The notes below the pieces were generated by a model. The model saw only the letters and a program-made list of their open reading frames with translations, made no database searches and was not told the DNA's origin. DNA of 64,000 bases, from the IMG/VR virus record IMGVR_UViG_3300037467_000627; one strand, given 5' to 3'. The translations under genes and the position numbers were made by a program. The DNA comes from a virus. Below, one piece after another: positions 15,201 to 43,974 of this stretch (position 1 is its first letter; each line of letters starts with the position of its first letter).

Positions 15201-15432
15201 GATGAATCAGTCTCCACTCCTGCTGTCCGGCGTTACGCTTCTCGATCAGCATGACCTTCGTCTTCGGGTACCACTTCTCGACCATCGAGATGTAGTCGAC
15301 GGCAGCCTCGTCTGTCTGGATGGCGCTGGTCACGTGAAGAATCGTGAAGCCGATACTCGTGTAACGGTAGCCAGCCTGGGCGTTCTCGGGCGCTTCGTAG
15401 AGCCTGTCGAGGTAATCGTTGAGGTAGGTCAT
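14992..15432 (-). CDS. hypothetical protein
   Basis: 146-aa ORF with a Pro-rich C-terminal tail. Confidence 0.65.
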   Translation of the reverse strand: MTYLNDYLDRLYEAPENAQAGYRYTSIGFTILHVTSAIQTDEAAVDYISMVEKWYPKTKVMLIEKRNAGQQEWRLIHRVEEASRQLYVLPSERVHMQAVEVPPPVADYVIDRDGNITPPIPEGSTPGSAVVTPPPVIVPPPVDPSP

Positions 15433-15920
15433 CGGAAACTCTCCACTACCTGCACGCTAACCTTATAGAGATCGGCTAGCTCGCTAGCGGGAAACCCAGC
15501 CTTCAGACCGTTGCGAATCTGCTTCTCGGTCTCAGGTGAGACTGTAGGCAACACTACACGCCGACGAGGCTGTGTAGGTTTACGCGTCGCTGCCTTCAGT
15601 TTGTCAGCTCCCGGCGTGATGATGCCAGTCATACCGTGACAGCCAGGTGTGTCAGGGAGTGCCTGACCTTCCTTCTTCGCGTTATAGCGAGCTTTGGCGT
15701 GACGTGAGATTTCCCTCTCGTCTTGGAAGAGCTCGTATCCCCACCACTGACTGCGGCGATACAGGCCCTTGATGGCGAAGGCGAGACCTTTCATCTCGCC
15801 CTTCGCCTGGTCAACTTCGAAGAGCTCGTATGGCTTGGTTGGATCTTCACTGTAGTACCAAGTGACGAGCTCGTCCATCCTCTCCCAGAGGAGGTCGAAC
15901 ATGTTCTTTCCATCTGGCAT
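15429..15920 (-). CDS. hypothetical protein with C-terminal HTH
   Basis: 163 aa. C-terminal SPETEKQIRNGLKAGFPASELADLYKVSVQVV resembles a resolvase/Sigma70-r4-type HTH. First gene after a 350-nt non-coding gap. Confidence 0.6.
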   Translation of the reverse strand: MPDGKNMFDLLWERMDELVTWYYSEDPTKPYELFEVDQAKGEMKGLAFAIKGLYRRSQWWGYELFQDEREISRHAKARYNAKKEGQALPDTPGCHGMTGIITPGADKLKAATRKPTQPRRRVVLPTVSPETEKQIRNGLKAGFPASELADLYKVSVQVVESFR

Positions 15921-15940: not shown

Positions 15941-15958
15941 GATGATAGTGCTATCATC
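15941..15958. promoter_or_regulatory. 18-bp palindrome GATGATAGTGCTATCATC, putative operator
   Basis: 8-2-8 inverted repeat 21-38 nt upstream of the ATG at 15920. The core TGATAGT(A/G)CTATC recurs at 40127 and 40593. Confidence 0.5.
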
Positions 15959-16676: not shown

Positions 16677-16708
16677 ATTTCTCCTTGGGAAGGCGACGTA
16701 TTACTTCG

Positions 16709-16782
16709 TAGCGGGAGAGGGCTTCGATCCCTCGACCTCCGGAGTATGAGTCCGGCGTTCTGCCAGGCTGAACTATCCCGCA
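16709..16782 (-). tRNA. tRNA-Met (anticodon CAT; could be Ile2/lysidine type)
   Basis: Cloverleaf: D arm GTTC/GAAC, anticodon arm CCGGA-CTCATAC-TCCGG, T arm GAGGG-ATCGAAG-CCCTC, acceptor GCGGGA/TCCCGC. No encoded CCA. Ends accurate to about 2 nt. Confidence 0.8.
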
Positions 16783-27516: not shown

Positions 27517-27749
27517 ACCGTTAGGACGATGACGGTGATCTCAACTTTGTGACGACGCCAGCTCACTCTAGATCTTTCCCCAGGTTTTTATTGCAGCGTT
27601 TACATACTGTTCGTCCATCGAACTTCGTGGTCAGCGCGTGGTGGAACACATGACAGAAGGTGATTACTATCAGCAAGTACACGAAGCTGAAGAAAGGAAG
27701 GAATGGCCTATCTGCCAACAGCCTAACCATCTCGGATCGATAACTCATG

Positions 27750-27823
27750 TCTGCTAAGAGGGATTTGAACCCCCGACCTCTGGCACCCAAAGCCAGCGCT
27801 CTACCAAACTGAGCTATTAGCAG
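27750..27823 (-). tRNA. tRNA-Pro (anticodon TGG)
   Basis: CTGCTAA-TA-GCTC-AGTTTGGTA-GAGC-G-CTGGC-TTTGGGT-GCCAG-AGGTC-GGGGG-TTCAAAT-CCCTC-TTAGCAG-A. Has the C1:G72 pair typical of tRNA-Pro. Confidence 0.9.
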
Positions 27824-34884: not shown

Positions 34885-35022
34885 TTACAACGGCCTCGTC
34901 AGGTACATGATGACTGCGCGCGCCACAGGGCTACCAAGGATAGCCAGGGCGACGAGCGTGCGAGCTGCGTACCAGCAGATCTGATACAGCACGCCTAGCG
35001 GCAAGATGGTGATCGGCTCCAT
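34885..35022 (-). CDS. small membrane protein (45 aa, below track cutoff)
   Basis: MEPITILPLGVLYQICWYAARTLVALAILGSPVARAVIMYLTRPL. Its ATG overlaps the upstream stop as TGATG. Confidence 0.4.
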   Translation of the reverse strand: MEPITILPLGVLYQICWYAARTLVALAILGSPVARAVIMYLTRPL

Positions 35023-35375
35023 CAGTGCCCTTGCCTCCCGTCAGGTCCCCAAGGACCCCACTGCTGCGCTGCACTCGTCGGGCCGAGATCGAAGTCGCTA
35101 TCCGACTCCTCGGCCTGCTCGAGGGGTGCGTTGGCGACTGACGCGAGGTTGCACATCTCGATGTGCATCCGCACCTTCTCCGAACGCAGGGCTGCGTCCA
35201 TCAGCAAGGACTGCACTGCGTCGCCGATCTCCTCGCCGTTCTCGTCGAGCTCCTGCGGCGACTTGTAGCCAGCGTGATAGAGGAACTCGACACACAGACC
35301 TGATGCTTCATCGATCCGACTCTTTTCCAGCTCGGTGAGCCTCGTCCACTGGGACGGCAACTTCGGTAACTTCAC
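35022..35375 (-). CDS. hypothetical acidic protein
   Basis: GTG at 35375 behind GGAGGGG. Alternative starts at 35414 and 35486. First gene of the leftward train after the divergent gap. Confidence 0.5.
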   Translation of the reverse strand: MKLPKLPSQWTRLTELEKSRIDEASGLCVEFLYHAGYKSPQELDENGEEIGDAVQSLLMDAALRSEKVRMHIEMCNLASVANAPLEQAEESDSDFDLGPTSAAQQWGPWGPDGRQGH

Positions 35376-35519
35376 CCCAACCCCTCCGTATCTCGTTATC
35401 GGCGGCCAGGTCATACGTCTGGCCCACATGCCCATTCTACGCCGCACTGGGTGGGGAGAACTAGCAATTGATAGCACACACTTCACTGTCGGTAATCAGC
35501 CGAACAAAGGTATATGGTC

Positions 35520-35556
35520 GTTGCCCTCGGCAACAATACTGGTTGCCCTAGGCAAC
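35520..35556. promoter_or_regulatory. two copies of the 15-bp palindrome GTTGCC-N3-GGCAAC, putative operators
   Basis: GTTGCCCTCGGCAAC (35520-35534) and GTTGCCCTAGGCAAC (35542-35556), 22 bp apart, in the divergent gap between 35022..35375(-) and 35681..36010(+). Confidence 0.55.
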
Positions 35557-35680: not shown

Positions 35681-36010
35681 ATGACTAAACGAGGTGGACT
35701 AGCGTCCGGACTATGGATTCACCCTGATGACCCCTGGGGAAAGGTGCATCACCTATCTGGGTATGCCTACGTGCCTATGCGACTGAATGACGACGAGCTC
35801 GGTTGGGGATTCCAATCGACACCTATCCGCACACCTCGCCGATGCGAACACGGGTACACCTGTTGTATCGAGTGCGTTGATTCGTGGGCGCTGGACTATG
35901 AGGTCAATTGGGGCGCGACGGCTGGCGGTAGAAGGTTGCGCCAGGCAATCATCGATCGATACGCCACGGACCCCAACGCGCCCGATGTGCGAGGCGTGCC
36001 TAGGCCGTGA
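35681..36010 (+). CDS. hypothetical protein (only plus-strand gene in the early arm)
   Basis: 109 aa. ATG with GGAAGG upstream. CEHGYTCCIEC cysteine cluster. Followed by its own hairpin terminator. Confidence 0.55.
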   Translation: MTKRGGLASGLWIHPDDPWGKVHHLSGYAYVPMRLNDDELGWGFQSTPIRTPRRCEHGYTCCIECVDSWALDYEVNWGATAGGRRLRQAIIDRYATDPNAPDVRGVPRP

Positions 36011-36040
36011 CGGCACGCGCTAGCTAGCACAAGGCATGAT

Positions 36041-36072
36041 GCGCCCGGACCCCGGTAGGTGGGTCCGGGCGC
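36041..36072 (+). terminator. stem-loop terminator after 35681..36010
   Basis: 12-bp perfect stem GCGCCCGGACCC / GGGTCCGGGCGC with an 8-nt loop, 30 nt past the stop. Confidence 0.6.
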
Positions 36073-36452
36073 ATTGTCGTAGGTGGGCCTGACTGGGCCG
36101 TAATGGGGCCTAGAACGCGCGTTCAGGCGGTCCGGGTAGGTGGGTGTGGGTGCGGGGGTTCAGGCCGTCAGAACGGCACACACGGCGTGTGGCGCGCGGG
36201 CCGTGGTCGGCGCGGGCCGGTAGCGGGCTAGGACTCGCTACGCGCGGGCCGTAGACGGGCCGTAGGCGGGCGCTGGGCGCGTGATGCGGTGTCGGGTGTA
36301 GGTGGCATCTAGCGGGCCGTTAGAACGGCACACACGGACGCGCCACGAGGTATGTAACACAGGCGGTGTCACATGGCGTGTCGGCACGGGATTGTCGACT
36401 GTATACAGCTGATCGTCGGCGGCATGCCGGATACTGTATACAGCAGGTAGCA

Positions 36453-36494
36453 AAACAAACCACCGACCAGGTTGCCCTGATCGGTGGTTTGTTT
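36453..36494 (-). terminator. intrinsic terminator after 36504..37295
   Basis: 14-bp perfect inverted repeat AAACAAACCACCGA / TCGGTGGTTTGTTT with a 14-nt loop. On the minus strand the stem is followed by TTTTG. Confidence 0.75.
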
Positions 36495-36503
36495 CCTACG
36501 GGG

Positions 36504-37295
36504 TCACGCGGCCAGGCGGAACCCCTTGACCTTGCTGGCGTTCTCGGTCGACTCGATGCCGTCCATCTCGCGACCGTGCGCCGCGCCGATGGCACCGACC
36601 GAGGGGGCCTCGTCCGGGCCGTACGCGTCCGACCGGTGGTTGTGGATCTGCGCGCAGGTCAGGATGGTGCCCTCGGGTGCGGCCTCCAACGCGGAACGGA
36701 TGTGCGCCTCGACGGACCGCTGCGGGCCGGTACGCCGGTTGCCGGACTTGACCGTGGCCAGCTTCGTGGCCAGCGCGTCACGGGCCTCCGTCTCCTGGTC
36801 ATCCAGGCCACCGTTGACCCGTTCCACGAGTGCGGCGTACGCGTCGGCACCGTGCGCCTCCTTGAACGCGTTCAGGGCGATCTCGCGCGCCGACTCCAAC
36901 GCGGCCAGGTGGATGACGTACGCGTCGGCGGGGTCAACCTCGACCGTGGGCCGTGACGTGACCAGCACCGCGTTGACGTCACGAACCAGGGCCAGCTTGC
37001 CCATGTCCAGGTCGTTCAACGCGTCGGACTGGAACTTGGCCCAGGCGGCCCGCATGGCGGCCTTGGTACCCTTGTCCGCGTTGCGGTACGCCGCGCCGAC
37101 CGACTCGACGTAGGCGGCCTGGTCCGTGTCGGCCGACCAGTCCGGGATGACGTACGCGGGGGCCTGGGTGGTCGGCGCGGCCTTGTCGGTGCCCGTGTTG
37201 GTGTCCGTGGCCTGGACGGGCGCGGGGGTCGGCGCGGGCGCGTCGGCGGTCTGGGCGGTCTTGCGGGTGCGGCGGGTGTTGGTGTTCGTGGTCAT
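36504..37295 (-). CDS. hypothetical protein, putative winged-helix C-terminus (paralogue B of 29800..30738)
   Basis: 263 aa, AGGAGG RBS. The C-terminus HIRSALEAAPEGTILTCAQIHNHRSDAYGPDEAPSVGAIGAAH...KGFRLAA aligns with 29800..30738. Confidence 0.65.
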   Translation of the reverse strand: MTTNTNTRRTRKTAQTADAPAPTPAPVQATDTNTGTDKAAPTTQAPAYVIPDWSADTDQAAYVESVGAAYRNADKGTKAAMRAAWAKFQSDALNDLDMGKLALVRDVNAVLVTSRPTVEVDPADAYVIHLAALESAREIALNAFKEAHGADAYAALVERVNGGLDDQETEARDALATKLATVKSGNRRTGPQRSVEAHIRSALEAAPEGTILTCAQIHNHRSDAYGPDEAPSVGAIGAAHGREMDGIESTENASKVKGFRLAA

Positions 37296-37387
37296 GATTC
37301 TCGGCCTCCTAGCCGGGTAGTGCGGCGGGCACGGTGCCCGCCTAGATCCAGAATGGGTGATGGGTAGGTGCGTGTCAATAGGTGGGC

Positions 37388-37422
37388 GGGTAACGATCTC
37401 GGCGAGTCCGGGATCGTTACCC
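37388..37422 (-). terminator. stem-loop after 37435..37830
   Basis: 11-bp inverted repeat GGGTAACGATC / GATCGTTACCC with a 13-nt loop, 12 nt past the stop. Confidence 0.5.
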
Positions 37423-37434
37423 GACTATGGGTGA

Positions 37435-37830
37435 CTACGGGGTCACTCGGTGCCAGTCGTAGGTGCGCCCGTTCCACACGGGTAGGCACGAGTCCTCGGT
37501 GGGGCACTCGGCGGAACGGACGTAGGCGGGGGTCGGCGGGGTGTCGAGGCGGTCCGTGAGGCGTGTAGCCGTGTAGGCCGACGCCATGACCGATACGACG
37601 ATCACGCTGGCCACCAAGGCGGCCCATGCGGACGCGCGGCCCATGATGCGGAAGGCGGCCCGAAGGTGTGTGCGCCGTACGTGGCGACGGTACGCGCGGG
37701 CCGAACGCGCCTCGGCCTCGGCGGTACGCGGGTAGGTGGGCCGGATACGGGTGATACCTGACTGGTCCGTGATGCATACGCGTCCGTTGCGTGTGACGGT
37801 GCGTACGTTCGTGTAGGTGGGTGTGCGCAT
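37435..37830 (-). CDS. hypothetical single-pass membrane protein
   Basis: The track ORF 37435..38097 was trimmed to the ATG at 37830 (GGGAGG RBS). ASAWAALVASVIVVSVMASAY is hydrophobic. Contains PTY/RTY motifs. Confidence 0.55.
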   Translation of the reverse strand: MRTPTYTNVRTVTRNGRVCITDQSGITRIRPTYPRTAEAEARSARAYRRHVRRTHLRAAFRIMGRASAWAALVASVIVVSVMASAYTATRLTDRLDTPPTPAYVRSAECPTEDSCLPVWNGRTYDWHRVTP

Positions 37831-37963
37831 GGTGTCTAGCCTCCCAGGCCGTGTGTAGCGGTGTGTGTGCCCGTGTGCGGGCCGTTCAGGTGTGTGTAGG
37901 TAGGTGGGTGTGGGTGGGCACCTACGAGGCGTGTAGGCGGCATAGGTGCCCGTGTAGCGCGTG

Positions 37964-39586
37964 CTAGCGGATGGCGTAGTGCGCGTCGAGTGTGTCGGCC
38001 CATGCGGTGTAGTGCGCGCGGGACGGTTCGTAGGTGCCGAGCTCCATCTCGCGCACCAACGATGCGTACGCCGCGCCGACCGTGGGGAACGCGACACCCA
38101 CCCACATGGCCCATGTGCGGCGGAACTCGTCCACCATGGCCGCTACGTCGTCGCGTAGCACGGTGCGGTAGGTGTCCCGCTCGAACGGCACGCGCGTGAC
38201 TACGCGGGTGTAGGTGTCGGGCGCTACGGGGCCGTAGGTGCCCGCGTAGCGTGCGTTGGCGCTACCGGTGAACGTGTGCCCGTTGGCGTCACGGTGCGCG
38301 CCCGCGTGACCGATAGGTGCGATGCATGCGCCGTACGCGCCGTGATCGTGTAGGCACGTGGCGACCATGGGCCACGATGCCGACGACACGCGGTCATAGG
38401 TGCCCTCGGCAACTTCCTGCCAATAGGTGCCCTCGGCAACTACGTAGGTGGTGGTGCGACCGGACTCGTCGGTGTACCACATGTGGTTGACGTCCGCGCG
38501 GGTGACCGTGCCATCCGCGTAGGTGCGCGTGGTGACCGTGCCATCGGTGGTAACGGTGTAGTCGGTGCCGTGTCGGGATGTGCCCGTGTAGGTGCGACCG
38601 GGGATCATGCCGACCCACGGCGCGGGGTCTACTACGCCCATGGCGCGCGCTACGTGGGCGCGTACGGGCCGACCGAACACGGACACGTAGGTGTCGGTGT
38701 CGGCGGGGTCCGTGGCGTCTACGGGCGCGCTAGGTGTCGCTACGAACGGCACACCGAACGCGGATACGGCGTCGGTGTCATCGGCGGTAGGTGCGTCGTT
38801 GGTGTCGGTGGCAACGTGCACGATGTAGTCACTACGCGGTGTGGTCCATGACCCGTTGTCCGTGATGATGCGAACAATGGTCCAACCGTCATCGTCGGTG
38901 TCGGCATCGATGGTGTCGTGTTCCACGGTGCCCGCGATGGTGCGGGTGATCGTGCGCCCGGTGCCGTCACCCGTGTGCATGTGCAACGTGACGTAGGTGC
39001 CGGGCGCAACGGTGTCTAGCAACACGCCGTGTTCCCCGCACGCGATGCACACGGGTGCGTCGGTGCCGGTAGGTGCGTAGGTGTCGGTGTCGGCACCGTG
39101 TACGTCTAGGTAGGACATGCCCGTTTCGGGGTCGGTGTCCGCGTCGGTGGTGTCACGGTCGAACCACGGCGTAGCGTCGGTTGCCGGAACCGTAGGTGCG
39201 CCGTAGGTGTTCGTGCCGGTAGACGCGTAGCCCATGCCATCGGCGGTACCCACGTAGCTACGCGCGGGGTCAACGGTGGTGATGGGCACGCCGTAGCGGG
39301 TAGCTAGCACGGTGGGTTCGTCGGTGTAGGTGTGGTCGGTGTGCGGGGGGGTGGGCATGTAGGTGCCGAACACATCCGCACCGGACGACAACGGTGCACA
39401 CCACACGGCGTAGCCATCGGTGTAGGTGTCGGACCCCACGTAGTAGCCCCATCCCGTAGGTGCGGTGTCGCGGTGCGCGTCGAACCACCGGGTAGCGCCC
39501 GCATGGGTGCGGTAGCCACTACGGATGATGTGTGCGGTCATGTCGGTGTGGTCGGTGTGTGCGTGGGTGCGGATGGTGTTCGTCAT
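37964..39586 (-). CDS. orphan 540-aa Thr/Tyr/Asp/His/Gly-rich protein
   Basis: ATG at 39586 with AGGGG upstream. At least 15 (G/D/P)-T-Y tripeptides, encoded by the recurrent CACCTAC heptamer. No domain recognised. Confidence 0.6.
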   Translation of the reverse strand: MTNTIRTHAHTDHTDMTAHIIRSGYRTHAGATRWFDAHRDTAPTGWGYYVGSDTYTDGYAVWCAPLSSGADVFGTYMPTPPHTDHTYTDEPTVLATRYGVPITTVDPARSYVGTADGMGYASTGTNTYGAPTVPATDATPWFDRDTTDADTDPETGMSYLDVHGADTDTYAPTGTDAPVCIACGEHGVLLDTVAPGTYVTLHMHTGDGTGRTITRTIAGTVEHDTIDADTDDDGWTIVRIITDNGSWTTPRSDYIVHVATDTNDAPTADDTDAVSAFGVPFVATPSAPVDATDPADTDTYVSVFGRPVRAHVARAMGVVDPAPWVGMIPGRTYTGTSRHGTDYTVTTDGTVTTRTYADGTVTRADVNHMWYTDESGRTTTYVVAEGTYWQEVAEGTYDRVSSASWPMVATCLHDHGAYGACIAPIGHAGAHRDANGHTFTGSANARYAGTYGPVAPDTYTRVVTRVPFERDTYRTVLRDDVAAMVDEFRRTWAMWVGVAFPTVGAAYASLVREMELGTYEPSRAHYTAWADTLDAHYAIR

Positions 39587-39774
39587 GGTGTGCCCCTAGG
39601 TGTGATCGGTGGGTGGTAGGTGGTGCATGAACAACGTACGTGTAGGCGCATCGTAGGTGTAGGGGTAGGTGTGGGTTTCGGGATCTTGTTACCATACTGC
39701 AATGTACGCACCGTGATAAGGCGTCACAAGGTGTAGTCGTGTGATGTGTGCGTGTAGGTGTGGCATGAGTGGTG

Positions 39775-40046
39775 GTTGCTAAGGGCAACAAAGCGCCGAA
39801 CGAGTGCATGACTTCGTTGCCAAAGGCCCCTATTGAGTCATCGTTGCCTCGTGCAACCTTTGCCATGGGCAACAATACACCTTTGTTGACCTCGGCAACG
39901 ATTACGTTGCCATCGGCAACTGATGCCAAAGGCAACCGATAACGTACATTATCGGTCGGCATATCGATGCCTGACGCAACGAGTTTTGTTGCCAACGGCA
40001 AACACCTTTGATGCCCTCGGCAACTAAACCGATTGCCCTTGGCAAC
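39775..40046. repeat. phased array of 11 copies of the 15-bp palindrome GTTGCC-N3-GGCAAC
   Basis: Sites start at 39775, 39816, 39843, 39859, 39885, 39906 (perfect), 39922, 39966, 39988, 40010 and 40032. The last four are exactly 22 bp apart. No convincing ORF. Confidence 0.85.
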
Positions 40047-40124
40047 AAAGAAAATTCCGACCCCCCCTCGCGTGGCGCGCCTCTGAGCGCTTTTCGTACC
40101 TGACAAATTTTTTGGGTACCTAAG

Positions 40125-40142
40125 GATGATAGTACTATCATT
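40125..40142. promoter_or_regulatory. palindrome GATGATAGTACTATCATT (perfect core TGATAGTACTATCA)
   Basis: Same core as the 15941 operator-like palindrome. Confidence 0.5.
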
Positions 40143-40199
40143 AAGAGCCCTACAAGCTACGCCCTCTGCACCCATGAAGCCGACCATGGACAAGACGAG

Positions 40200-40795
40200 G
40201 ACACCTGACACCCTACAGAGTATATATACTATATATATACTTTAATTACTGTATAATATACACGAGCTATTCACGGGCGGTCCACCTGTAGCGTTTGCCC
40301 ACGTCACGGGCCATCTTTGGGGTTTGTGCGGGTTTCCTGACCCCCATTCCGTCCCCCTCTGTGCGGCATGCCTCACTGACACCGACCGTTTTGTACCATG
40401 TCTCCCCTTGTAGCGTTGTACCATCAGTCTCCCCTTCTCCTCCCTTTTGGGCCTATATAAGGACCCCGTATTAATTAATTCCCCGACGATCGCCAAAGAT
40501 GCCCCGTGACGTGGGAAAACACACCAGGGGATTAGTTTTTCGGCCGCTGGCGTTTATCCCATGGACGGAATTAATCCGAGTGACCTGCCTGGTGATAGTG
40601 CTATCCATTGTCAGACCCTACTCCACAAGTTTTGTACCAAGTCTAGCCTATTCTAGACCGTTTTGAATAAACACGAGCGGTATACTCACCAAAATTATCA
40701 GAAATCCGGATTAATTGCCCTGATATGACAAGTCTAACGCGAAACCGTCCACTTCGGCCACGTTCTGGCGCCTTTTTAGACTGAAAGTAGACACG
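40200..40795. other. AT-rich, ORF-free, repeat-dense segment (candidate origin / regulatory hub / ncRNA locus)
   Basis: TATATATAC x2 (40221-40240). Three copies of TTGTACCAnnGTCT (40388, 40413, 40629). 13-bp long-range inverted repeat CCCACGTCACGGG (40298) / CCCGTGACGTGGG (40503). TGATAGTGCTATC at 40593. ATTAAT-containing motifs. Confidence 0.6.
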
Positions 40796-40839
40796 AAAAA
40801 GCGCCCACTCAGCGCCTGTTTTGCAGGTCTGAGGGGCGC
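40796..40839 (-). terminator. intrinsic terminator ending the replication-gene transcript
   Basis: On the minus strand: GCGCCCCTCAG...CTGAGTGGGCGC stem (one bulge) followed by TTTTTCG, 15 nt past the stop at 40854. Confidence 0.75.
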
Positions 40840-40853
40840 GATTTCGACGCTAG

Positions 40854-41102
40854 TTAGACGACTTTGATCTCGTGGCGTAGGTGTCCGCGCCCGTCGATGA
40901 CCGACTTGTGGCCGATGCAGAGCACGCGATGGAACGAAGCAGCGGACTGAATGAGCCAGATGAAGTCGATTTCCTCTTGAACTCCTAGGCCAGATTCGCC
41001 CAACTTGCGCTCTTTCCCCTCCTCGCGCAGAAATGCGTTGAGTTTGCCATCGATGCGCTCGATGACGATTCTTGCGTCCTCACTTAGCGGTGTAGCAGTC
41101 AT
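40854..41102 (-). CDS. hypothetical protein
   Basis: The track ORF was trimmed to the ATG at 41102 (MTATPLSEDARIVIERIDGKLNAFL...). Confidence 0.55.
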   Translation of the reverse strand: MTATPLSEDARIVIERIDGKLNAFLREEGKERKLGESGLGVQEEIDFIWLIQSAASFHRVLCIGHKSVIDGRGHLRHEIKVV

Positions 41103-41109
41103 CAGCTTG

Positions 41110-41430
41110 TCACTTCCTGGTCCAGTACCCACACTGGCCGGTCGACGAGAACGTCTGGTTTTTGGACCCCGTGCCGAGGATGATCGACGGAGTTTGGTTC
41201 TTTCTGGAGTACTTTTGGCGCCAGATCAGGGTGCCGTTGATGTTCTTCATCGAGTACGTGCAGCCCGGTGAGGCGCTCTTTGCGTACCAGATTCCGTAGT
41301 ACGCGGGGGTGACTTTGCGATTACCTGAGCCCATGGACTCGGCCGACCCGACATCGTCGGGACAGCCAGTCAGGGCCACAGTTGAGGCGGCGACAGCGAG
41401 TACAGCTAGTACTTTTCGTGCAGAATTCAC
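41110..41430 (-). CDS. putative lipoprotein
   Basis: MNSARKVLAVLAVAASTVALTGC: signal peptide ending in the lipobox L-T-G-C. Confidence 0.7.
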   Translation of the reverse strand: MNSARKVLAVLAVAASTVALTGCPDDVGSAESMGSGNRKVTPAYYGIWYAKSASPGCTYSMKNINGTLIWRQKYSRKNQTPSIILGTGSKNQTFSSTGQCGYWTRK

Positions 41431-41876
41431 AGTGATGCAACCTTGTCAGCGAAGTGGACATGACCGATGATCTCGTTGGGAAGAATGCGGGACTCGGCTT
41501 CGGTGATGAGCTCGTCTAGAACCTCGTATCGTGCGTTGGCGGACTTGGCTTGCTGGCTGCGGACGGCCAGCCGATGGGCGCGGCGGCACAGCAGGCCACG
41601 ACAGCCTTGCATGTACCCTGCGCGCCTACCGTGCTGGCCGGAGAACTGAGGCTGGGCTACCTCGGCCATGAAGTGAGCGATGAGCTTGGTGATCAGCTCG
41701 GTCCGCGTGCCGTCTAGCACCGCGCCGAGGTCGCGCACTGGGCAGGGAGTGCCCGCGACGTCGGCAACGTGCATCTTCAGCTGGGCGTCCCAGTAGACCG
41801 GGCCGTGCTCCATGTACTCCAGGCACTGCTTCGTGAGATTGGTCGCTTCTTCGCCGACCGGGTAGGGGTTAACCAT
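41427..41876 (-). CDS. hypothetical protein
   Basis: The track ORF was trimmed to the ATG at 41876, which overlaps the primase-helicase stop by 8 nt. Confidence 0.6.
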   Translation of the reverse strand: MVNPYPVGEEATNLTKQCLEYMEHGPVYWDAQLKMHVADVAGTPCPVRDLGAVLDGTRTELITKLIAHFMAEVAQPQFSGQHGRRAGYMQGCRGLLCRRAHRLAVRSQQAKSANARYEVLDELITEAESRILPNEIIGHVHFADKVASL

Positions 41877-43974
41877 GCTGGACACTCCTGAGACGGACGG
41901 GGGGACGACCAGCCTTACCGGTCTGAACCTTGACTTCCTCGATGAATCCAGCCTTGATGAGCTCATTGATGGCCTCGTTGACCTGCTTGGTTCCGATGTT
42001 CTTGGTCTTCATCGCGTCATACAGCATCGAGCGGTTCGGGCCGAGTCCGTTGCCGAATTCAGCCTCCTTGCGCTTGATGTAGTTCAGCACACGATCGATG
42101 AACTCCTGCTGCTGCGACTTGCCGATCTGAGCGCCGACGAGCCTGAGATTCGCGAGGATGTAGGGGTGGAGCTTCTCGATGAACGCTACGTCGAGCTCGC
42201 TGACTTCGGTCGCGCGGCGGTTGATTGCGTGACACAGCATGAGCTTCTTGTAGTGGATCTCGAGGCGGGCGATCATGTCATCGTCGGACCGCTTGATCAT
42301 CAGATCGACCGGAGCGAAGAACTCCTTGAACGCCTGGCGACCCTCGGGGGTTACCTCGAGGATGACCGGGGCGTCTGTGGGGTTCTTCCTCTGCGAGGCA
42401 ATCGCGATCCCGCTGAGCGTATTGAGTGCCTGCTGCAGATTGATCGCCACTCCACCGAAGTAGTCGTCGCGCTGCTTGGTCGGCCCGGATACATACAGCC
42501 AGCGGTTGAGGTAGCCCGACGCCTGATCCTGGCTGTCGAGGAGCTTGCGGAGCGCCCTCGGCTGGCTGGAAGTGCTGAACGTGGCGAACGCATCGCGGGC
42601 AGCCTTGCGTCCGTGCGTCTGAGAGGAGTTGGTGATGATGTGACGCCCGTCGATGAAGTCCATGATCTTGGTCTTCAGCGTAGACCCTTGGATGGATGAC
42701 TTCGCCAGGATGGTCGACAGCTCCGAGAACTCGACGTAACCCTTGATTGGCCTGGGTGCGGCTACACCCTTGAGGGTTCCCTCGAACTCTCCGATCAGCG
42801 CTTCGCCGGACGCTACCTCGCCGACGTAGCGAGCTCCCTCAACCATCACGCCGATGTCATTCTCAGGCATCGCGTAGCCGATGGCCTTTGCGATGTAGTT
42901 CTGTGCGGTCGACTTACCCGAGCCCGTCTTGCCGAGGTAGCAGATCGGCAAGTTCGCCATGACCGGTCGGTCGCCACCCATCAACACATCCCTGCCCGCC
43001 GCCAGGCCAAGCAGGAGAAGCCCGCTAAACAGGTGATACTCCTCCGGACTGTAGTCGTGGCTCGTTGCGTCGCACCACTGATACAGGAAGGTGTCCTGGT
43101 AGTCCTTCAGAGCTTCCCGCCACGGAAAACTTGGAATGTTTGCGTCTGAGTCAAGTTCCGGGTCGTAGGCGTCGACTTCCGGATCGATGGAGATAACCTC
43201 CGCGAGAGGCTCATCAGGCTCCGGAGGTATGCCCGTTGCAAGCGGAACAAAGCCGAGCTGTGTGGGCGGCGGCACAAGATGCAGTGCTGGGGGTGTGGCC
43301 CCATCCTCCACCGGCTGCACGCCTGGAGAATCAGGCGCAACTGGCTGTACCGCACTGGGTCGCGGCGCGGGTTGCAAAACCGGAGGGGGTGGAACAGGTG
43401 TAGATACAACGACCGGCGGTACGAGGTCATACCCGCCTCCTACTTTCTCGTTGAACGAATAGCCCAGATCTTCGCCCATGGCGCGCCTGAGCTTGTGGAA
43501 CATGGCACCCTCTTTATATCCGGGCACCGGGAATCCGTGGTGGTATGCAGCGATGTCGTAACCATCGCCGCCCTCCTGGCAGCCTCCGCAGAACCAAGTA
43601 TTCTTCTCGGTATTCAGCCAGGCGGAAGGGTTAGCGTCCTTATGACTGGGCTTCGGACAGGACACCATGATCGACTCGGTGCGGCCGGACGAAACCTTTG
43701 GCTTCATCTTTCCGCACCACTTCGCGTACGCCTCGAGGATGCCGATTCCGTCGAGGATCCTGTCCAGCTCGATGTCCTCGTCTGTACGCGTGTGAGACGA
43801 GTCTGAGTCAGTGTCCGGAATGAGTGCAGGGTCAAACTGAGGTGTAGGCGGCGACGCCGGAGCTACAGCTTCTTGTTCAGCTGCGCGCTTGGCGTTCGCC
43901 GCCGCCTGAAGCTGACGAGCCCTCTCCAGAAGCGAGAGAGGCTGGTCAGTCACGGAATGGGTCTCCCATCTCAA
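41869..43974 (-). CDS. DNA primase zinc-finger / P-loop helicase fusion protein
   Basis: CPKPSHKDANPSAWL...WFCGGCQEGGD (CHC2-type zinc finger of DnaG-like primases). Walker A LGKTGSGKST about 330 aa downstream. 701 aa. Confidence 0.7.
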   Translation of the reverse strand: MRWETHSVTDQPLSLLERARQLQAAANAKRAAEQEAVAPASPPTPQFDPALIPDTDSDSSHTRTDEDIELDRILDGIGILEAYAKWCGKMKPKVSSGRTESIMVSCPKPSHKDANPSAWLNTEKNTWFCGGCQEGGDGYDIAAYHHGFPVPGYKEGAMFHKLRRAMGEDLGYSFNEKVGGGYDLVPPVVVSTPVPPPPVLQPAPRPSAVQPVAPDSPGVQPVEDGATPPALHLVPPPTQLGFVPLATGIPPEPDEPLAEVISIDPEVDAYDPELDSDANIPSFPWREALKDYQDTFLYQWCDATSHDYSPEEYHLFSGLLLLGLAAGRDVLMGGDRPVMANLPICYLGKTGSGKSTAQNYIAKAIGYAMPENDIGVMVEGARYVGEVASGEALIGEFEGTLKGVAAPRPIKGYVEFSELSTILAKSSIQGSTLKTKIMDFIDGRHIITNSSQTHGRKAARDAFATFSTSSQPRALRKLLDSQDQASGYLNRWLYVSGPTKQRDDYFGGVAINLQQALNTLSGIAIASQRKNPTDAPVILEVTPEGRQAFKEFFAPVDLMIKRSDDDMIARLEIHYKKLMLCHAINRRATEVSELDVAFIEKLHPYILANLRLVGAQIGKSQQQEFIDRVLNYIKRKEAEFGNGLGPNRSMLYDAMKTKNIGTKQVNEAINELIKAGFIEEVKVQTGKAGRPPVRLRSVQHG

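Follow-up and report, generated by a model that had tools for sequence, protein, structure and literature searches.

A conserved gene-free segment of a soil phage genome, tentatively read as a replication origin with operator-gated promoters

Positions 40200-40795 of IMG/VR virus record IMGVR_UViG_3300037467_000627, a 64,000-nucleotide stretch of soil phage DNA that was analysed at its full length (the window), form the core of a 1.27-kb gene-free gap (39587-40853). Taken together, the comparisons described below suggest that this segment is a conserved non-coding, cis-acting DNA hub that would work through bound proteins, its probable role being that of a replication origin with operator-gated promoters. 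This reading is put forward tentatively. It draws on the conservation of the layout, selection on the boxes, an A/T tract without equal in the window, short repeats that are replaced in concert, the absence of both a coding signal and RNA covariation, and the adjacency of genes for a primase and an MCM-like helicase. An earlier note on the same DNA, made from its letters, had offered an origin, a promoter/operator hub or a structured RNA. Of the three, the origin is the best supported, since 15 relatives and some distant isolated phages keep its layout; the support lies in anatomy and position.

Results

A layout shared among metagenomic relatives

Fifteen related contigs from IMG/VR, JGI, ENA, NCBI and Logan were found via the helicase (52-100% helicase identity). 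Every one has a gap of 1.2-1.4 kb without called genes at the equivalent place (gene calls reported for 11), and the same parts follow one another in all 15. First comes a palindrome array, followed by two hairpin/T-run elements; an A/T-rich stretch and a -35-like hexamer then lead to the palindromic operator O1. It continues with two CCATGR repeats, an almost pure A/T tract of ~45 nt, the near-invariant 5' box CGTTTCCGCAGGTCACGGGCC and ~150 variable nt that always include a homopyrimidine run. It ends with the inverted 3' box CCCAAAGATGCCCCGTGACCTGCGAAGATGTCC, a second operator (O2), a TTGTACCAAGT box in 11/15 of the sequences compared, a further repeat and a terminator hairpin. The corresponding features of the window are given in Table 1.

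Conservation is unevenly spread over these parts. Averaged over pairs of sequences, the 5' box is 82% identical and the 3' box 74%; the helicase gene averages 67%, its third codon positions 48% and the interior between the boxes 47%. On these values the boxes are under selection and the interior, apart from its composition, is not. Replacement indels in the interior already separate the window from L001, a relative that is 96% identical. The segment between the repeats has the same orientation in all 16 sequences, and an inverton was rejected.

Not every phage with a helicase of this family carries the element: L004 (helicase 30% identical) has neither the gap nor the A/T tract. Comparison with 50,697 phage records, in near and distant modes, gave no DNA match, and an IMG/VR scan with the 3'-box pattern returned three already-known relatives and three chance matches in coding DNA. 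A helicase scan of metagenomes yielded one new short contig only; a helicase profile search of genome contigs yielded none, so that no host or prophage link emerged.

The A/T tract

G+C content is 0.435-0.55 across 40100-40800, ~0.60 to the right and 0.65-0.73 in the island to the left; the composition profile thus bears out the drop that the earlier note had described, and all the motifs that it listed for 40200-40795 were recovered at their positions, the ATTAAT motifs included. The A/T tract opens with TATATATAC and TATATATATAC (40221-40240) and continues into TGTATAAT (40250-40257). The 40-mer from 40221, with 36/40 A/T, is the AT-richest of the 64-kb window, and outside the gap the AT-richest 40-mer reaches 26/40. 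Five of the eight AT-richest 40-mers of the window fall within 40105-40731. The longest pure A/T run (12 nt, 40469-40480) and the longest purine or pyrimidine run (21 nt, homopyrimidine, 40428-40448) of the window also lie here.

A (TA)n tract is present in 15/15 relatives and in the isolated phages ReqiDocB7, Perlina and Reynauld. Judged by sequence alone, the easily melted A/T-rich element expected of an origin with iterons and a DNA-unwinding element is therefore present. CTGACA at 40205-40210 is a possible -35 partner for a -10 at TGTATAAT.

Lineage-specific repeats that change in concert

At least five families of short repeats occupy the region: operator palindromes, inverted CAGGTCA/CACGTCA boxes, lineage-specific 10-13-mers, TTGTACCA boxes and CCATGR repeats. 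The 10-13-mers recur at homologous positions and in both orientations. Their form in the window is AATA[AT]ACACGAGC (the M boxes), found twice in one orientation (40255 and 40666) and once inverted (40546); in relatives of the L014 type, box a2 and a fourth copy form a palindrome that coincides with a leftward promoter-like site. Between L021 and L022, whose helicase, primase, terS and terL are 88-96% identical, the whole set is exchanged. L021 (7697-8173) carries TTACGGCTGT five times and L022 (7718-8197) carries TTACCGAAGT six times, at corresponding places and in both orientations. Neither has the other's motif within the element; one match to the L022 motif, with a single mismatch, occurs elsewhere in the L021 locus.

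This concerted replacement of five to six copies between close relatives points to protein-binding sites. It would be expected of iterons whose binding protein changes specificity and would be hard to reconcile with a single RNA helix. Iteron-like behaviour, uniform within a genome and differing between relatives, is thus seen, and the paired binding protein is at the stage of a candidate. Only one of five neighbouring proteins, the 168-aa protein after the helicase, has a strongly diverged stretch between L021 and L022 (residues ~44-75). Its window homologue is the 149-aa protein of Table 1, in which residues ~44-75 are the variable part. The 168-aa protein is a candidate reader of the repeats, no more.

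Operators and other short repeats

The operator-like palindrome that the earlier note placed at 40593 holds up. Sites of the palindrome TGATAGTRCTATCA/TGATAGTGCTATC number three in the window (15943, 40127 and 40593), where 0.26 are expected; one stands 22 nt upstream of a gene start, and O1 lies between a -35 and a -10. O1 and O2 change jointly by lineage, reading TGATAG..CTATCA in most sequences, TGGTAG..TACC in L012 and TGCTA..TAGCA in L021 and L022. The sequence therefore presents a repeated palindrome, an overlap with -35/-10 elements and co-varying sites, as would befit a repressor acting at an operator-promoter. Operator looping was rejected: the O1-O2 spacing ranges over 439-487 bp and the helical phase is not conserved.

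The third operator copy, ATGATAGTGCTATCAT (15941-15956), lies 22 nt upstream of the ATG of the open reading frame (ORF) 15429-15920(-). The 163-aa product belongs to phrog_5406 (unknown function); its sequence matched nothing in Pfam or PDB, and IMG/VR yielded no close relative. It is a candidate for an autoregulated operator-binding protein.

Copies of TTGTACCA start at 40391, 40416 and 40632; two further GTACC cores lie at 40096 and 40116. The three-copy repeat of the earlier note is thus present, but the count of the 14-mer, 3 vs 1.8 expected, is not by itself above chance. In the alignment of relatives a TTGTACCAAGT box follows O2 in 11/15 sequences compared, and TTGTACCA/GGTACAA repeats also occur in the isolated phages Kvothe, at the inner edge of the direct terminal repeat (DTR), and Monty. 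A hairpin GTCTAGCCTATTCTAGAC followed by CGTTTTG (+ strand, 40641-40658) is found in the window and L001 only, as a lineage-specific insertion between the TTGTACCAAGT box and the next repeat.

The palindrome GTTGCC-N3-GGCAAC is matched 25 times in the window, where 2.6 matches are expected; 11 of the copies lie within 39775-40046, and the array is also seen in relatives. Elsewhere, two perfect copies (35520-35556) lie directly upstream of ORF 35022-35486(-), and two 1-mismatch copies (38399-38440) lie inside a 540-aa ORF. These outlying palindromes perhaps mark the gene of the array-binding protein.

Promoter and terminator signals

The sigma-70-like promoter at O1, P(O1), has an A/T-rich upstream stretch (40105-40113) and points rightward, away from the G+C-rich island. 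Its -35 position reads TTGGGT in the window and CTGACA, TTGGCT or CTGGCA in relatives, with AAATTTTT ahead (table of 13 relatives). A promoter scan of L020 returned CTGACA-18-TATCAT at the O1 position with a score of 10/12. The window's own P(O1) scores below the scan threshold, and a strict scan across the alignment gave no site common to at least six sequences; the O1 promoter rests on a relaxed reading taken with the L020 scan and a site in Kvothe. L014 also has a leftward TTGAAT-18-TATCAT site, inside the repeat palindrome to the right of O2.

Between the array and O1, relatives carry GACCC-GGG-GGGTC then AATTTTCTTT (minus strand), and next GCGC..GCGC-TTTTC (plus strand); the first, GACCC-type hairpin is degenerate in the window. 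At the other end, the minus-strand terminator described in the earlier note (40796-40839) was recovered by the terminator scan. In all relatives an A-run flanks its hairpin on the left; six also show a clear T-run on the right, which makes the terminator potentially bidirectional. With the hairpin/T-run elements on one flank and this terminator on the other, the segment looks insulated on both sides. Transcription may enter it from one end or from both: the plus-strand O1 site and the plus-side T-run of six relatives would provide a promoter and terminator of its own on one strand, and minus-strand candidates also exist.

Coding potential

ORFs of 55-84 aa are present on both strands, and stop-to-stop frames of at least 40 codons occur on both strands in every relative. 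One ORF, 40242..40496 (84 aa, TTG start), is not conserved in relatives and has no match in PHROGs, the sole library scanned for it. Among 15 relatives, frame, start and length of the ORFs all differ, and indels are not multiples of three. The seemingly conserved peptides FPQVTGHF, WPVTCGN and KDAP* are translations of the conserved boxes. Small ORFs starting from GGGGAGAC-ATGGTACAA, which resembles a ribosome-binding site plus start on the minus strand, or from an ATG in the 3' box (MPRD...) were rejected, their frames not being conserved. The conserved small protein gene that the earlier note had considered as an explanation therefore does not apply.

The long inverted repeat

The 13-bp inverted repeat first noticed at 40298 and 40503 is real and extends to 48-nt arms that are 79% complementary; these arms are among 33 inverted pairs in 39500-41000. 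The closing helix is part of the minimum-free-energy fold in 15/15 sequences compared (window included), and the fold of the window beats shuffles on both strands (z = -2.8 and -2.6). In an arms-only alignment 81.7% of cells pair; sliding the partner by 1-3 columns lowers this to 30-46%.

Covariance analysis, which the earlier note had suggested as a check, gave a different result from simple pairing. When partners are shuffled among sequences, 80.1% of cells still pair, and 23/500 shuffles reach the observed value. The covariation score of 0.134, against 0.114 in shuffles, is reached by 39/500 and is not significant among these relatives. Only two double-sided changes were seen (pairs 21/56 and 24/53), both in the lineage of the window and L001, and L016 is changed on one arm only. 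Wobble pairs favour neither strand, with 45 counted on the plus and 38 on the minus. RNAalifold recovers the closing helix alone on either strand, with no conserved interior fold; Rfam gave no match at E up to 1 in 38000-43000, and no tRNA or tmRNA was found in the segment. As the covariation and pairing test for selection is negative on the available data, the inverted repeat is taken to be conserved as sequence. The structured-RNA reading keeps its conserved inverted repeat and is weakened on covariation, strand bias, interior fold and Rfam membership.

Genome context

The segment lies 1-1.7 kb downstream of the genes for an AEP primase (PF22548, phrog_5362) and the helicase. Rightward from 45077 run the small and large terminase subunits (TerS and TerL), the small one being unusually large (445 aa). 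Leftward from 44854 run the AEP primase, the 701-aa helicase, two or three small genes, the terminator, the gap and the G+C-rich genes. The AlphaFold model of the helicase (pLDDT 81) predicts an MCM-like AAA+ fold with a C-terminal winged helix: all top-50 PDB fold matches are MCM (E 3e-8 to 5e-6, TM 0.26-0.35). The model of the 149-aa protein is confident (pLDDT 85) and has no PDB fold match (best E 1.5).

Table 1. Features of the gene-free gap and its flank in the window
Feature	Position	Strand	Details
11 GTTGCC-N3-GGCAAC palindromes (array)	39775..40046	.	Same non-coding module, outside 40200-40795
Two back-to-back hairpin/T-run elements	40047..40096	.	Putative; part array from segment; found by reading, not by terminator scan
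Sigma-70-like promoter P(O1)	40105..40141	+	-35 TTGGGT 40112-40117, 18-nt spacer, -10 TATCAT 40136-40141
Operator O1, ATGATAGTACTATCAT	40126..40141	.	Perfect 16-bp palindrome; occupies spacer and -10 of P(O1)
Two direct CCATGRA repeats	40171..40191	+	From alignment; in most relatives TCCATGR x2 between O1 and A/T tract
A/T tract	40221..40262	.	Candidate DNA-unwinding element and/or promoter -10 region
M box a1, AATATACACGAGC	40255..40267	+	Lineage-specific repeat
5' arm of long inverted repeat	40285..40332	+	Core box CCCACGTCACGGG 40298-40310; GTTTCCGCAGGTCACGGGCC in relatives
Fast-evolving interior	40333..40480	.	Holds TTGTACCA (40391, 40416), 21-nt homopyrimidine run, 12-nt A/T run
3' arm of long inverted repeat	40481..40528	-	Core box CCCGTGACGTGGG 40503-40515; CCCAAAGATGCCCCGTGACCTGCGAAGATGTCC in relatives
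M box b1, GCTGGCGTTTATC	40546..40558	-	Inverted relative to a1 and a2
Operator O2, TGATAGTGCTATC	40593..40605	.	CCTGnCTGAC precedes in relatives
TTTGTACCAAGTCT box	40631..40644	+	Right of O2 in 11/15 sequences compared (window included)
M box a2, AATAAACACGAGC	40666..40678	+	Lineage-specific repeat
Intrinsic terminator of leftward helicase operon	40796..40839	-	Terminator scan
149-aa protein directly after helicase	41427-41873	-	Conserved; invariant motif HG.R..Y..GCRGLLCRRA
Helicase, 701 aa	41869-43974	-	DUF3987 with N-terminal CHC2 zinc finger, phrog_5311

The 96%-identical L001 lacks a 236-bp segment (40867-41102) directly to the right of the terminator, which in the window makes up the greater part of the 92-aa ORF 40854-41132(-); the two differ here by a clean insertion or deletion. 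The G+C-rich island (36000-39600) has 65-73% G+C against ~59% elsewhere and encodes Thr/Asp/His/Gly-rich proteins without family match, such as the 540-aa ORF 37964-39586(-). Contigs L002, L012, L018, L022 and L023 break at the 5' end of that ORF, which suggests strain-level hypervariability. A retron was rejected: the downstream 540-aa protein has no family match, so no reverse transcriptase was identified there. Genes for tRNA-Met (CAT; 16708-16782) and tRNA-Pro (TGG; 27749-27823) lie on the minus strand among leftward genes.

Counterparts in isolated phages

The nearest isolated phages are the Rhodococcus phages Perlina, ReqiDocB7 and Reynauld and the Gordonia phages of cluster CS, with helicases 25-34% identical; BLAST found no alignable DNA between the window and isolated phages. 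A long non-coding region in this group was noted by Liu et al. 2015 (Sci Rep 5:13754, PMC4563357) without being explained. It measures ~1,800 bp in GordTnk2, Gmala1 and GordDuk1, 1,185 bp in GTE7 and 2,484 bp in ReqiDocB7 (PMC4563357), and published papers on the DocB7-like/cluster CS region give neither its anatomy nor its function. Like the gap of the window, it stands after the helicase and a few small genes, is gene-free and is rich in inverted repeats.

ReqiDocB7, Perlina, Monty and Reynauld also have boxes of the CGCAGGTCA type beside an A/T tract; the number and orientation of these boxes vary, as those of binding sites do. In ReqiDocB7, the 2,484-bp unannotated gap (68370-70852) follows the helicase module; its helicase-proximal end has TATATAT-GCAGGTCAGAG and, ~190 nt on, TCTGACCTGCGAAGATGGCC, with two direct copies of CGCAGGTCAGGG upstream. 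Perlina has the A/T tract and then CTACAGGTCAGAC, its second strong box being direct, not inverted, with further direct copies. In Reynauld, GTTTGCGCAGGTCAAGCC lies at the inner edge of the 330-bp DTR, CGCAGGTAG inside the A/T tract and CTGACCTGGGCGG ~105 nt past the tract. What the window shares with these three is an A/T tract, a GCAGGTCA-type box and a further box ~105-190 nt on, which is inverted in ReqiDocB7 and Reynauld and direct in Perlina.

With Monty the window shares CGCAGGTC boxes and the palindrome array: two TGACCTGCGG boxes and one GTTTCCGCAGGTC box lie at most 700 bp from Monty's left end, and its 191-bp DTR contains a GTTGC..GCAAC palindrome array like that at 39775-40046. Kvothe, with a 1,172-bp DTR, has two copies of TTGTACCA at the inner DTR edge, then TTGACA-17/18-TATAGC with the palindrome GTGGTACCAC in its spacer. 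After this promoter-like site come an A/T-rich stretch, a hairpin with an A-run on one side and a T-run on the other, and leftward genes up to the helicase.

On these sequence features the window segment is assigned to the DocB7-like/cluster CS non-coding region, as at least 1 kb of gene-free DNA with inverted repeats and shared elements. Unlike its counterparts, the gap of the window is shorter (1.27 kb), uses the box variant CACGTCA and has operators and lineage-specific repeats of its own. The isolated phages are lytic, with DTRs of 184-1,182 bp (PMC5559632, PMC13313380), and in Monty, Kvothe and Reynauld the homologous non-coding region begins at the inner edge of the left DTR (PMC4982279, PMC5559632, PMC13313380). 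By analogy with these three, the window segment would lie just inside the left DTR of the virion DNA.

Discussion

If the segment is an origin, initiation would involve: binding of the lineage-specific repeats and conserved boxes by a phage-encoded, sequence-specific protein; melting of the A/T tract, possibly aided by transcription from P(O1), as at the T7 primary origin; and loading of the neighbouring MCM-like helicase and AEP primase. A protein that recognizes the palindromic operators would then turn P(O1) off later in infection.

Several known systems resemble parts of this scheme. In the T7 primary origin, an A/T-rich cluster comes after promoters 1.1A and 1.1B (Saito et al. 1980, as cited in PMC12839067). 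The likeness extends to a promoter that runs into an A/T tract with no gene behind it, to a place near a DTR (here by analogy) and to a lytic phage with its own primase and helicase. Unlike in T7, the promoter here is of the host type, sigma-70-like, rather than one for a phage RNA polymerase; no protein homology links the two, and the T7 origin is without the operators, inverted boxes and iteron-like repeats of the window. T7 also has the gene-less promoters phiOL and phiOR near its terminal repeats.

The oriV of RSF1010 combines iterons, an A/T-rich tract and the inverted sites ssiA and ssiB, primed by RepB', and phage P4 has ori and crr with the alpha primase-helicase. As in these origins, a repeat array, an A/T tract and an inverted conserved pair lie here beside primase and helicase genes, and the repeats are uniform within a genome and differ between relatives. 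Unlike theirs, the arms are ~190 nt apart and form no local hairpins, and the likeness is one of description rather than of sequence or protein homology. In archaeal oriC, inverted origin-recognition boxes surround an A/T-rich unwinding element at which MCM is loaded. The MCM-like helicase, inverted conserved boxes and A/T-rich DNA are common to both, whereas no Orc1/Cdc6 homologue was found here, the A/T tract is beside the box pair and the likeness of the helicase to the MCM fold is partial (TM 0.26-0.35).

Other observations weigh against an origin. The main A/T tract lies beside the inverted box pair and not, as in classic layouts, between the boxes, and the GC skew of the window gives no usable signal. 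Between L021 and L022, whose repeats differ, the winged helix of the helicase is near-identical, with only three of the last 120 residues substituted. No initiator was found among the neighbouring proteins compared, and the 149-aa neighbour has no known fold. The argument for an origin comes from anatomy and position only; promoter- and terminator-like sites occur on both strands, so that the region could be transcribed and an RNA product is possible; and a place beside the terminal repeat, which is itself assigned by analogy, would suit packaging signals equally well.

One alternative, which we consider unlikely but in need of weighing, is an early non-coding unit in which a rightward promoter at O1 or in the A/T tract yields an RNA of ~650 nt that ends at 40796-40839 and is itself the product (regulator, decoy or primer), with the long inverted repeat closing a stem. 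The conserved rightward promoter at O1 (the L020 scan, the Kvothe site and the 13 relatives tabulated) and the plus-side T-run of six relatives agree with it, as do the helix in every fold compared, the folding z-score of the window (-2.8) and the excess of pairing over slid partners; the outer repeats a1 and b1, moreover, stay complementary while their sequence changes between lineages. Set against this are the non-significant covariation, the origin of both compensatory pairs in a single lineage with L016 half-changed, the even split of wobble pairs between strands, a consensus fold limited to the closing helix around a neutrally evolving interior, and the lack of an Rfam family. The "complementary" repeats also occur in three to six copies and both orientations, the second strong box of Perlina is direct, and box number and orientation differ in Perlina and Monty. 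A role in packaging, with the boxes and repeats as terminase sites for concatemer cutting and DTR regeneration, seems distinctly unlikely. It would account for the start of the region at the inner left-DTR edge in Monty, Kvothe and Reynauld, for the GTTTGCGCAGGTCAAGCC box and TTGTACCA repeats at that edge in Reynauld and Kvothe, respectively, and for the unusual size of TerS. However, TerS and TerL are 95-96% identical in L021 and L022 despite their different repeats, the terminase genes lie 4.5 kb off, beyond the replication genes, and neither the unique A/T tract nor operator-gated promoters would be required.

The earlier note's promoter/operator hub, driving the genes of the G+C-rich island (37964-39586 and beyond) leftward, fares worse and is judged improbable. 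Minus-strand -10-like hexamers do lie in the A/T tract, the palindromic O1 offers TATCAT on both strands, and L014 has its leftward TTGAAT-18-TATCAT site. Yet relatives place T-run hairpins between the segment and the array, including the hairpin and minus-strand AATTTTCTTT between O1 and the array; a leftward transcript would have a leader of ~500 nt that includes the 270-nt palindrome array; and the clearest and best-conserved promoter, O1, faces the opposite way. That the segment holds a missed small protein gene, or is non-functional spacer DNA, is hardly credible. The ORFs on both strands, the start-like GGGGAGAC-ATGGTACAA and the hypervariable interior could be read in that sense, but the 15 relatives agree in no frame, start or length, the 84-aa ORF lacks a PHROGs match, and the boxes and layout are kept far beyond neutral expectation, even between phages whose helicases share only 25-34% identity.

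The origin and RNA readings are compatible, as a transcription-activated origin would satisfy both. A further, speculative proposal, to be regarded as a long shot, is that an operator-gated promoter, placed at the end of the DNA that is injected first, drives transcription of the region, possibly with convergent transcription from both sides, and that the 10-13-mers in a long non-coding RNA serve as a self-recognition code, licensing replication or packaging of the phage's own DNA and excluding related co-infecting phages. If true, this would constitute an RNA-based or RNA-assisted marker of "self" in lytic actinophages.

No new category of element is demonstrated here, and the kind is already in the literature. 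In ReqiDocB7, Gordonia cluster CS and the Reynauld group, 1.2-2.5 kb of non-coding DNA in otherwise tightly packed genomes has so far gone unexplained. What is new is the anatomy of this region, with its shared A/T tract, CAGGTCA box pair, operator-gated promoter-like sites and switching repeats, and its extension to a new uncultured lineage. In practical terms, it defines a fragment on which assays of origin, promoter and packaging function could be based in the engineering of Gordonia and Rhodococcus phages. If the segment is an origin, it would be the first mapped for phages with an AEP primase and an MCM-like helicase, and its switching repeats would offer a natural system for the evolution of origin specificity.

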